Below the pieces are notes generated by a model, which saw only the letters and a list, made by a program, of their open reading frames with translations, searched no databases and was not told the DNA's origin. Of a stretch of DNA of 64,000 nucleotides, positions 25,373 to 27,557 are shown piece by piece. The stretch is from NCBI GenBank assembly GCA_029984035.1, contig JASBYJ010000001.1, positions 213,534 through 277,533 on the forward strand. Direction: 5' to 3'. Each line of letters starts with the position of its first letter. Position 1 is the first letter of the stretch. The stretch is from Conchiformibius sp. Lineage in GTDB: Bacteria > Pseudomonadota > Gammaproteobacteria > Burkholderiales > Neisseriaceae. The position numbers and the translations under genes are program-made.

Positions 25373-26776
25373 TTGTTGAAAGGGCTGGAGGTGAGAGAGG
25401 TCTTGTTATCCATTATCAGTAAAAACAAAGATTATAGATTTGATACTGATTTTTGGACAAAAGAACCTAAACAAAATCCAAATTTAACCTATATTAAAAT
25501 TGGTGATTGCCTTTTAAAATCACAATATGGGATTTCTATTGCTATGAATGAAGATGGGAAAGGTATTCCAATTTATAGAATGAATGAAATTCATAATATG
25601 TTATGTGATTTTTCTGTATCAAAATGCGCCGATATATCAGACTTAGAAAAGGAAATTTTTTTATTAAACGACAGAGATGTTTTGTTTAATAGGACAAATT
25701 CTTTTGAATGGGTTGGTAGAACAGGAATTTTTTACCAGCAGCATGATATGGATTTTATTTTTGCTTCTTACCTTGTACGATTTGTTCCCAATGAGGAGGT
25801 TATCTTACCTGAATATTTAACTGCATACCTTAATACAAAATATGGTATTTGGGATTTAAAAAGACGGGCTAGGCAGTCTATCAATCAAACGAATATCAAC
25901 CCAGAAGAAGTAAAAGAAACTTTTATCCCTTTATTAGATAAAAGTATCCAATTGAAAATTAAAGATTATTTTGATAGTGCAAAAGTATCTTTAATGAAAT
26001 CAAATTGTATATACACCGAAGCCGAAAATCTATTATTAGAAAACTTAGGCTTAAAAAACTTTCAGGCAGCCTGCAATCCGGTCAATATCAAATCTTTAAA
26101 ACAAAGTTTCTTAAAAACAGGCAGATTGGATGCGGAATTTTACCAACCGTTTTATGAGCAATTGGAACAGCATATCCGCAATCATACGCACGGCTTCAAG
26201 CCTTTAAGCAAGGTATGCCGCCTGAAAGATAAAAACTATACGCCTAAAGATAATCAGGAATATGACTATATTGAATTATCCAATATCGGAAATTCAGGCG
26301 AAATTACAGGCAGCACGCGGGCATTCGGTAAAGACCTGCCTTCCCGTGCAAGGCGGAAAGTACAAAGCAATGATGTGGTGATTTCCAGTATTGAAGGTTC
26401 ATTGCAAAGTTGTGCCATTGTGCCGCCGCAATATGATGGCGCTTTATGTTCAACGGGTTTTTATGTATTGTCGCCCAATGAAATAAATCCGGAAACATTA
26501 TTGGTTTTGTTCAAATCATCTTTGATGCAAGGAGTTTTAAAACGAAATTGTTCAGGAACCATTTTGACCGCTATCAACAAAGATGACTTGCTCAATATTC
26601 CTGTACCGCTTATTGACCCAGAAACCCAAACCCAAATCGCCGACCATATCCGCCAAAGCAATGCCTTACGCCAAAAAGCACATTCGCTGCTGGCGCAAGC
26701 CCAATCCGCAGTTGAAACGGAAATTGAAAATAATTCAATTAATTCAGTAAATTGCGGGGGGGGGGGTAAACCTTGA
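25373..26776 (+). CDS. hsdS: Restriction-modification specificity (S) subunit with two target-recognition domains
   Basis: 467 aa, TTG start. Two TRDs separated by a conserved central helix (AENLLLENLGLKNFQ) and a C-terminal conserved region (LLAQAQSAVETEIE). Ends ...CGGGGKP* right after a homopolymeric G tract. Confidence 0.85.
   Translation: MLKGLEVREVLLSIISKNKDYRFDTDFWTKEPKQNPNLTYIKIGDCLLKSQYGISIAMNEDGKGIPIYRMNEIHNMLCDFSVSKCADISDLEKEIFLLNDRDVLFNRTNSFEWVGRTGIFYQQHDMDFIFASYLVRFVPNEEVILPEYLTAYLNTKYGIWDLKRRARQSINQTNINPEEVKETFIPLLDKSIQLKIKDYFDSAKVSLMKSNCIYTEAENLLLENLGLKNFQAACNPVNIKSLKQSFLKTGRLDAEFYQPFYEQLEQHIRNHTHGFKPLSKVCRLKDKNYTPKDNQEYDYIELSNIGNSGEITGSTRAFGKDLPSRARRKVQSNDVVISSIEGSLQSCAIVPPQYDGALCSTGFYVLSPNEINPETLLVLFKSSLMQGVLKRNCSGTILTAINKDDLLNIPVPLIDPETQTQIADHIRQSNALRQKAHSLLAQAQSAVETEIENNSINSVNCGGGGKP
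26756..26766. repeat. Homopolymeric G tract (9 visible by my count; 11 implied by the ORF-track reading frame) two codons upstream of the hsdS stop, a candidate slipped-strand phase-variation site
   Basis: Encodes the Gly run in ...NCGGGGKP*. A -1 change in tract length reads [22 protein letters not shown]... directly into the downstream partial S ORF at 26793. Confidence 0.7.
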
Positions 26777-26792
26777 AGACCCGAATGTTTGC

Positions 26793-27557
26793 TTGGAAAA
26801 AGCTTTGTACCATCAACGCTTGGCAGAATGGACGTTGTTGGAAAGCCTGCTGTTTGGCCGCAGGCTGCCTGAAAATACCGCCGTTCTGCCTTTCAGCCAA
26901 TCGTTTGGCACAAGCGGGCGTTTGGACGCGGAATATTATCAGCCTAAATTTAACCGCCTGTTGCAACACTTGAAAAAATATCCGCACGCCAAATTAGGCG
27001 TTTTGACGGATTTAAACAAATCCGTTGAACCAGGCTCGGAAGCCTATCGTGATAAAGGCGTGCCGTTTGTGCGGGTGGCAGATTTATCGGTATTCGGTAT
27101 CGCGCCTACCGATAAATTTTTAAATCCGGATGATTTTTATGAAACCATCCGTCCTAAAAAAGACACCGTGTTGCTGAGTAAAGACGGTACGGTCGGCATC
27201 GCCTACCGCGTGCCGCAGGATTTGGACATGATTACTTCGGGCGCGATTGTGCATTTGCGCATCAAGCCCGAATACCGCGAAAGCCTGCTGCCTGATTATC
27301 TGGCGTTGGTGCTCAATTCGCCTGCCGTGCAAATGCAGGCGCAACGTGATGCCGGCGGCTCTATTATCCAACATTGGAAACCTTCGGAAATTAAGGAAGT
27401 CATCATTCCCGTACTGCCCGAAGAGCAGCAACGTGAAATAGCTAATAAAATTCAAGAAAGTTTTGAATTAAAAAGACAAAGCGAAGATTTGCTATCTAGG
27501 GCAAAGTATTTGGTTGAACGGGAAATTGAAAACTCCGCGTACTTTCAGGCTGCCTGA
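26793..27557 (+). CDS. Partial specificity-subunit module (central conserved region, one alternative TRD, C-terminal conserved region), in a different frame from the preceding hsdS
   Basis: 254 aa, TTG start. Begins with a central-helix-like segment, then [12 protein letters not shown] (compare TGRLDAEFYQP at the start of TRD2 in the upstream hsdS), and ends with the conserved [15 protein letters not shown] helix. Confidence 0.7.

Follow-up and report, generated by a model that had tools for sequence, protein, structure and literature searches.

Analysis of a 64,000-nucleotide stretch of the genome of Conchiformibius sp. (Neisseriaceae; GenBank assembly GCA_029984035.1, contig JASBYJ010000001.1, positions 213,534 to 277,533; hereafter, the window) points to a horizontally acquired, two-gene restriction-modification (RM) unit in which the specificity (S) gene is apparently switched between two products by changes in the length of a poly-G tract. 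The S gene (25373..26776; this and all other features are on the forward strand unless stated otherwise) encodes, with the 11 G present in the sequence, a complete specificity subunit of 467 amino acids (aa) with two target-recognition domains (TRDs), as judged from the open reading frame (ORF), AlphaFold2, Foldseek and Pfam, and the tract at its 3' end leads into a third TRD module (26766..27557) that is in a different reading frame. This is the arrangement of the 'extended phase-variable hsdS', a class defined by TRD1, TRD2a and TRD2b and by a repeat that separates 2a from 2b (Atack et al. 2019, FASEB J 34:1038, PMC7383803). The comparative data described below make a functional switch very likely, and we hold the explanation of the locus as a whole by a phase-variable extended-S switch to be probable by a wide measure; the case for the switch operating in this particular strain is strong but indirect. 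This kind of switch is already known from two other species, and the window provides a new example in a new host, a Conchiformibius-like oral commensal.

A poly-G tract at the end of the S gene and the reading frames it connects

Direct reading of the sequence and a scripted count both give a homopolymer of 11 G at 26756-26766, the putative slippage site, which encodes the run of glycines linking helix CR2 of the S protein to module 3. The first-pass annotation, made from the sequence alone, had counted 9 G in the letters, which is a miscount, and had offered 11 G as the alternative implied by the translation CGGGGKP, which is the correct number. The ORF of the S gene (ORF1, 25373-26776) ends with NSVNCGGGGKP followed by the TGA at 26774..26776, two codons past the tract. 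The downstream ORF2 (listed as 26793-27557, 254 aa) is in the +1 frame relative to ORF1, and that frame is already open from 26751; module 3, which would be read only with 10 or 13 G, comprises an open frame of 262 codons. When the gene was rebuilt in silico with tract lengths of 8 to 14 G, 10 or 13 G produced a single in-frame fusion of ORF1 and ORF2 (727 or 728 aa), 9 or 12 G led to an immediate TAA (26767..26769), and 8, 11 or 14 G gave the KP* ending. These frames bear out the original proposal that removal of one G joins the S gene to the downstream ORF, as seen in the 727-aa ORF obtained with 10 G, and that addition of one G brings an immediate TAA, as seen with 12 G. The two ORFs are within the reach of a single-nucleotide slip, given that the step from 11 to 10 G fuses them.

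The tract stands out from its surroundings. In dinucleotide-preserving shuffles, a run of 11 G is expected 0.03 times per window, and only one other G or C run of at least 7 bases occurs within the 64 kb, at 9154-9160.

Modular organization of the specificity protein

The S gene starts with TRD1 (about 25373-25939), followed by the central helix CR1 (25940-26047), TRD2a (about 26048-26617) and helix CR2 (26618-26731). Beyond the tract, module 3, the TRD2b cassette, consists of an extra helix, hN (26781-26855), TRD2b (about 26856-27419) and helix CR3 (27420-27551), with the stop codon at 27555-27557. For ORF1 alone, AlphaFold2 predicts a compact S fold (predicted template modelling score, pTM, 0.79) with two long helices, residues 190-225 and 416-453, and the best fold match in the PDB found by Foldseek is S.BsaXI (8w0p_C). 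The Pfam domain Methylase_S matches the second TRD of ORF1 (residues 282-427) and is present also in ORF2. The fused protein is modelled as three TRD folds with helices between them, those of module 3 spanning residues 470-494 and 683-726 in the fused numbering; Foldseek TM-scores against S structures are low for the long and short models alike. Thus, sequence and structure prediction agree with the earlier description of ORF1 as a two-TRD protein that stops two codons past the tract, and Pfam and AlphaFold2 agree with that of ORF2 as a helix, an alternative TRD and a C-terminal helix.

The alignments of CR2 with CR3 contain no gaps along 41-44 residues, and CR3 is a clear paralogue of CR2. 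The idea that hN is a duplicated end of CR1 was dropped as evidence, given that the BLASTP alignment was limited to the stretch just before the TRD and that few sequences passed a shuffle test (see below).

A simple repeat at the same junction in a broad family of S genes

We scanned contigs from one genome per species for related loci and located the junction between CR2 and module 3 in each (loci and proteins are denoted below by L and P numbers, respectively). Three modules are present in at least 46 of the best 80 loci, and a simple repeat occupies the same junction in at least 46 of 80 species-level genomes. The hosts include Neisseriaceae, Pasteurellaceae, Moraxella, Streptococcus, Helicobacter, Treponema, Filifactor, Capnocytophaga and many gut Bacteroidales, and the repeats are poly-G of 5-15, poly-C of 7-11, (AG)10-28 in Moraxella, (GACA)n in Filifactor villosus and metagenome contigs, and (GAACA)n in Treponema vincentii and its relatives. 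The extreme cases are (GACA)24 in F. villosus (L018:6990-7085), (AG)28 in Moraxella bovis (L031:7416-7471), (GAACA)9 in T. vincentii (L038, about 7400-7445) and G15 in Streptococcus cuniculipharyngis (L001:7376-7390). The GACA and GAACA forms share homologous flanks, which shows that one lineage swapped a tetranucleotide for a pentanucleotide repeat.

The phase was classified for 53 loci, 20 of which are fused and 33 split, i.e., 38% fused compared to the 33% expected at random phase. In 49 of these 53 loci, both non-fusing frames stop within 5 codons past the repeat and the third frame is open for 240-277 codons, so that both 'off' phases would end the protein cleanly after CR2; a G(n)TAA or G(n)TAG motif is conserved in most homologues. 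With the fusion protein of the 10-G phase as the query, we recovered over 100 natural proteins, 700-732 aa in length, which match 99% of its 727 residues at 45-72% identity, most of them with a run of 3-5 glycines exactly at the junction, which indicates that the fused form is the normal full length of the family. Some of the shorter matches terminate at this run of glycines. In particular, P0033 shows no difference from the 715-aa P0001 over the N-terminal 463 residues of the latter and ends with QQGGG where P0001 goes on as QQGGVNES; P0041 from Capnocytophaga cynodegmi ends with NISGGG, matching the fused proteins P0003 and P0056 at that point; and in P0023 (Rodentibacter rarus) and P0032 (Neisseria sp. 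83E34), the protein ends shortly past GGG, within a few residues.

The three readers differ in their conservation. The TRD2b domains of named genomes are 53-79% identical to that of the window, and TRD1 and TRD2a show 56-88% identity when of the same type and 24-34% when of another type. In a second sample, the loci were fetched by homology of the RM gene and hence without bias for S. These loci mostly contain two-TRD S genes with diverse second TRDs, and in those with three modules (approximately 12), the third module is always 49-71% identical to that of the window. The design of the family that emerges from these comparisons combines two readers that vary with a third, constant one located behind the repeat, in agreement with the variant numbers reported for Fusobacterium (PMC7383803; see below).

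Among five loci in all of which, the window included, module 3 is currently out of frame, its ratio of nonsynonymous to synonymous substitution rates (dN/dS) is 0.10-0.16, and these low values show that the module is maintained as a coding sequence by purifying selection even though out of frame. This observation bears on the possibility of a frozen frameshift, whereby an intact three-module gene would have been broken by a one-base insertion, with module 3 decaying and no switching. The locus is indeed out of frame as sequenced, and degenerate relatives exist: module 3 is truncated in L010, and the G tract is interrupted in the apparently locked L003 (GGGGAGGGG, 3030-3040) and L019 (GGGGGAGGG, about 7385-7395). 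However, a frozen frameshift appears hardly credible in view of the 262 stop-free codons of module 3, its 53-79% identity to homologues at a dN/dS of about 0.1, the immediate closure of both other frames past the tract, and a tract length of 11 G that is far beyond chance. A Saccharibacteria fusion (L080:5500-5700), in which the repeat is replaced by a long non-repetitive linker, likewise appears to be locked.

A further question is whether module 3 yields a product of its own in the split phase. A dimerising half-S has been documented for NgoAV and other truncated HsdS, according to the introduction of PMC7383803, and module 3, being a TRD with a long helix, could in principle be translated alone and dimerise into a symmetric S that would add a palindromic specificity beside that of TRD1 and TRD2a. 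However, no ATG precedes the TRD of module 3 in the window, where only TTG codons without a Shine-Dalgarno-like motif are found, and a start of any kind preceded by such a motif is present before module 3 in only 4 of the 35 split loci, none of these starts being conserved; for Bacteroidota, which do not rely on Shine-Dalgarno-like motifs, this test is weak. Given the lack of a conserved start or motif, module 3 is most likely silent when out of frame, and we consider an independently translated half-subunit very unlikely. A promoter and terminator scan detected no terminator between ORF1 and ORF2 and nothing beyond the shuffle expectation.

In many relatives, a third conserved gene follows the S gene (L032:8262-8822, L164:3352-3912, L081:8118-8759 and L001, about 8220-8774). 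It encodes 186-213 aa in three-module loci and has no Pfam or PADLOC match; relatives of about 270-300 aa (25-50% identical) follow two-module S genes, and distant ones are found in L085, L112, L158 and others. This gene is absent from the window, where mnmG directly follows the S gene.

The published extended hsdS genes come from Mannheimia haemolytica (G[n]) and Fusobacterium nucleatum (AAGAC[n]) (PMC7383803), and in the literature searched, the terms for extended hsdS are used in no other paper. In Mannheimia, G12 gives the extended protein and G10 or G11 the two-TRD protein, and the methylomes in REBASE show CAAC(N4)GT for the short form versus CAAC(N5)TC for the extended form, with one half-site in common; the authors speculate that TRD2b replaces TRD2a in the extended protein (PMC7383803). 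The variants reported for Fusobacterium number 9 for TRD1, 8 for TRD2a and 2 for TRD2b, and the Mannheimia-type system of that 2019 survey was taken from the REBASE entries for type I (PMC7383803). Our scan recovered the Mannheimia locus (L032, G10, split), which is 87% identical to the window in RM, 69% in TRD2b, 67% in CR2 and 57% in CR3, whereas its TRD1 and TRD2a (31% and 34% identical, respectively) are of unrelated types; this locus is flanked by metH and transport genes and includes no hsdR. On the strength of these sequence relationships, we place the window locus among the extended phase-variable hsdS genes, its variable readers being of other types, and the toggle between a two-TRD and an extended S protein envisaged in the first-pass annotation matches the published behaviour of the homologous M. 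haemolytica gene. A query that joined the helix consensus to (KTRQD)n, the translation of an AAGAC repeat, found no proteins of the Fusobacterium kind.

Tract-length variation among relatives

A homologue that is 72% identical to that of the window provides the closest view of a change in tract length. The contigs from SRR32406146 and SRR32406144 have G8 and are fused, and the contig from SRR32406528 has G10 and is split; the G8 and G10 contigs show 0 mismatches over 3720 aligned bp and a single gap, at the tract. In the Prevotella/Leyella lineage, tracts of G6 and G9 are found (L026 and L027), along with proteins of 711, 712 and 713 aa that contain GGG, GGGG and GGGGG, respectively.

Assemblies tend to break at this junction. 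The independent short-read Logan assembly SRR24332702 (L161) is identical to the window over positions 22781-26766 and ends exactly at the last G, and in Kingella pumchi (L046), a run of N directly follows G9. Homopolymers of 11 bases are error-prone, and both breaks can be taken to favour a miscount, in which case the genome would truly have 10 G (or 13) and encode a constitutive 727-aa S protein. Nevertheless, two assemblies agree on at least 11 G, albeit perhaps from shared reads, and even with another majority length the tract would be hypermutable and the family-wide evidence of phase variation would stand. We consider a miscount unlikely, and it would affect the current phase rather than the mechanism of the phase-variable extended-S switch.

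The partner gene and the class of the system

The S gene is preceded by the RM gene (23358..25343), which encodes a 661-aa nuclease-methyltransferase fusion identified by Pfam, conserved motifs, PDB and PADLOC matches. The N-terminal part contains a PD-(D/E)xK nuclease-like domain (Pfam HSDR_N_2, residues 55-162), and the methyltransferase part (Pfam N6_Mtase/Eco57I, residues 301-598) is of the N6-adenine type. Across 36 homologues with 53-76% identity to the window protein, the conservation of D94, E111-x-K113 and NPPF474 is 97% or higher. The best PDB sequence match is RM.BsaXI (E-value 8e-26), with the similarity confined to the methyltransferase region (residues 212-580), and the PADLOC model 'MTase_I' (PDLC03034, Type I methyltransferase) matches the protein end to end. 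An RM homologue is located directly upstream of S in 74 of the 75 related loci with enough flanking sequence.

The first-pass annotation had called the gene hsdS. The S subunit has the classical type I feature of two TRDs and two long conserved helices, but it is not accompanied by HsdR and HsdM, the sole partner being the nuclease-methyltransferase fusion. A gene for an HsdR-like superfamily 2 (SF2) helicase/translocase was looked for and not found, either in the 8-45 kb part of the window among ORFs encoding 280 aa or more or among the smaller ORFs beside the locus, and the methyltransferase is fused to the HSDR_N_2 domain, leaving no stand-alone HsdM at the locus. The system is thus not a classical type I system. 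In its gene layout, it corresponds to BsaXI and BcgI, members of Type IIB, a class that cleaves at fixed distances to either side of a bipartite site and has (RM)2S stoichiometry.

A low-GC island next to mnmG

The RM-S pair has a GC content of 27-45%, compared to about 60% in the flanks, which marks it as an acquired two-gene island. A strong terminator-like hairpin (23275-23303; 12 pairs followed by a T run) is located 55 bp upstream of the RM start, so that RM and S probably form a transcription unit of their own. The window MnmG shares 99% identity with its Conchiformibius kuhniae counterpart, and nucleotide homology to the complete genome of this species (CP091521.2; L165, 7958-9888; 95%), the nearest one, covers only mnmG and starts at 27558, the first base past the S stop codon; the genes on both sides of mnmG differ between the window and CP091521.2. 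The abrupt start of homology and the different neighbours of mnmG imply a sharp island edge within a gene order that is not conserved locally. Otherwise, the neighbourhood consists of housekeeping genes, including minC/minD, a LysR regulator, a Fur-family gene, mnmG, pilT-like ATPases, glnA and others. The G/C run at 9154-9160 mentioned above is 7 G (C7 on the coding strand) and lies inside a PilT/PilU-like T2SSE ATPase gene (8119-9501, reverse strand).

The DNA uptake sequence of the host, the 12-mer AGGCTGCCTGAA, occurs in 56 copies in the window. Three of these copies lie in the S gene: one in the CR1-TRD2a linker (26061..26072, reverse strand, i.e., the reverse complement of AGGCTGCCTGAA), one in the hN-TRD2b linker (26862..26873) and one across the stop codon of module 3, at the right-hand edge of the island (27547..27558); none is found in RM or TRD1. 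By count, the 3 copies in 1.5 kb are not a significant enrichment over the background of 0.9 per kb, and an enrichment was rejected. Their placement, which is only suggestive, brackets the TRD2a-tract and TRD2b cassettes and could favour the exchange of cassettes by transformation.

Just upstream of the island, a 190-aa ORF (22692-23264, forward strand, about 60% GC) encodes only a class I tRNA-ligase anticodon-binding domain (Pfam Anticodon_1), with an uptake-sequence hairpin (22767-22785) inside its 5' end; possibly, this ORF is what remained of a gene after the insertion.

Mechanism and strength of the proposed switch

In the proposed scheme, slipped-strand mispairing at replication would change the length of the tract. 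In two of the three phases (11 G; 9 or 12 G), translation would stop 0-2 codons past the tract, producing a normal two-TRD S subunit that, together with two RM subunits, would read a bipartite site set by TRD1 and TRD2a. In the third phase (10 or 13 G), translation would proceed through the Gly linker into hN, TRD2b and CR3, and the resulting 727-aa S protein, by analogy with the homologous Mannheimia system, would use TRD2b instead of one of the other readers and would methylate, and probably restrict, a different bipartite site. A clonal population would always hold cells with two methylation/restriction specificities. With respect to the takeover by TRD2b, the paralogy between CR3 and CR2 makes competition of the two for the partner helix, the central helix CR1, our preferred guess. 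Furthermore, because RM keeps the nuclease motif, the restriction specificity would change along with methylation; regulation of genes by the methylation switch, i.e., a phasevarion, is a possibility, and the switch may equally well be read as a change of restriction specificity.

Several observations weigh against this scheme or narrow it. The extended form is modelled with low inter-domain confidence (predicted local distance difference test, pLDDT, 78.7; pTM 0.55; linker 455-468 disordered), the individual domains being confident, and the model gives no information on the pairing of helices. Helix hN bears only a weak likeness to the end of CR1, and in a shuffle test this likeness was significant for 4 sequences out of 23. 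When two-module relatives are aligned with the window protein, modules 1+2 and modules 2+3 match them to the same degree, so that the CAAC half-site shared by the two Mannheimia forms is no proof that TRD1, rather than TRD2a, is the partner of TRD2b. Because TRD1 and TRD2a are unlike those of Mannheimia, the recognition sites must differ, and no specificity can be transferred from that system. The end of the Logan contig at the tract fits length heterogeneity among the reads and homopolymer error equally well. The window RM protein is the sole member of its 90% cluster, and the complete C. kuhniae genome has no RM-S island beside mnmG. Switching in this strain is inferred, as are the activity of both forms and the mode of the TRD2b takeover.

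The modelling results are relevant also to a simple ON/OFF switch, in which only the two-TRD form would be active, the three-TRD product would be misfolded or inactive, and the system would be off in about one-third of the cells. The pTM of 0.55 for the extended model versus 0.79 for the short form could be read this way, and a three-TRD S subunit has no solved structural precedent. However, the extended form of Mannheimia gives a distinct methylation motif and so is active (PMC7383803), module 3 is under purifying selection, and it is of one conserved type across phyla, which a mere 'off' tail would not need. An ON/OFF switch therefore seems quite unlikely to us, and we retain the change between two specificities as the preferred interpretation.

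A more inclusive reading, which we advance tentatively as a possibility, is that the extended-S switch is a built-in, horizontally mobile feature of a whole family of motor-less, BsaXI-like nuclease-methyltransferase systems rather than a peculiarity of two pathogens. Under this reading, a TRD2b that is constant throughout the family would lie behind a hypermutable junction for which at least five repeat types have been invented anew, the read-through protein would change specificity by a novel protein-level mechanism in which competition between CR2 and CR3 excludes one of the three readers (with TRD1 or TRD2a retained), and each slip would alter both restriction and methylation.

For the host genome, the locus adds one credible phase-variable element, an RM specificity switch on a low-GC island inserted beside mnmG. 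Four aspects are new with respect to the literature: the family is broad, one repeat type has repeatedly given way to another at a single junction, the third reader is constant, and the partner is a nuclease-methyltransferase that lacks a motor. These results give a partial answer to the question of Atack et al. on the spread of such genes: extended hsdS genes are found in dozens of host-associated species from several phyla, always beside the same nuclease-methyltransferase fusion, with a third module that is always of one conserved type and a repeat that differs in type. The family is a good model for how a three-reader specificity subunit picks two readers and for how a cell withstands a switch in the specificity of an enzyme that may also cut the DNA of that cell.

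Comparison with known systems

Membership in the MADS systems was considered and rejected. RM and S weakly resemble the profiles of MAD2 and MAD5, respectively, with NCBIfam scores of 322 bits against a cut-off of 720 and 124 against 400, respectively, but the other mad genes are absent and the locus consists of two genes only. The phasevarion described in Actinobacillus pleuropneumoniae (PMC10123105) involves shuffling of hsdS by inverted repeats and is not relevant here.

The first-pass annotation had pointed to the poly-G-controlled hsdS genes of pathogenic Neisseria, and NgoAV of Neisseria gonorrhoeae (type IC) indeed resembles the window locus in several respects: a poly-G tract lies at the end of the hsdS frame, loss of one G fuses a downstream TRD ORF, the specificity changes as a result, and the host also belongs to Neisseriaceae. 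It is not an exact model, though, because the position of the tract differs. As summarized in PMC7383803, the tract of NgoAV separates TRD1 from TRD2, a half-subunit that dimerises is made in the short phase, and the enzyme is a classical R2M2S type I enzyme, whereas in the window the tract follows TRD2a and CR2, the short product already has two TRDs, and there is no HsdR.

As for the protein components, the locus resembles BsaXI and BcgI, with an N-terminal PD-(D/E)xK nuclease and an N6-adenine methyltransferase in one polypeptide and an S subunit with two TRDs encoded separately; among solved structures, RM.BsaXI and S.BsaXI come closest to the window RM and S. RM.BsaXI has 916 aa versus 661 aa in the window. 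BsaXI forms an (RM)2S assembly (PDB 8w0p; PMC11997821). In the literature searched, we found no description of a Type IIB enzyme with a repeat-controlled third TRD.

The extended hsdS genes of Mannheimia and Fusobacterium resemble the window locus in having three TRDs with the repeat between 2a and 2b and in yielding the extended product in one phase of three and a complete two-TRD protein in the other two, and the Mannheimia locus, like that of the window, is a two-gene RM+S unit without hsdR. The Mannheimia and window loci differ in the in-frame tract lengths, 9 or 12 G in Mannheimia versus 10 or 13 G in the window, and in the 186-aa gene that follows S in Mannheimia and is lacking here; the window also differs from both Mannheimia and Fusobacterium in its host, a Conchiformibius-like commensal.

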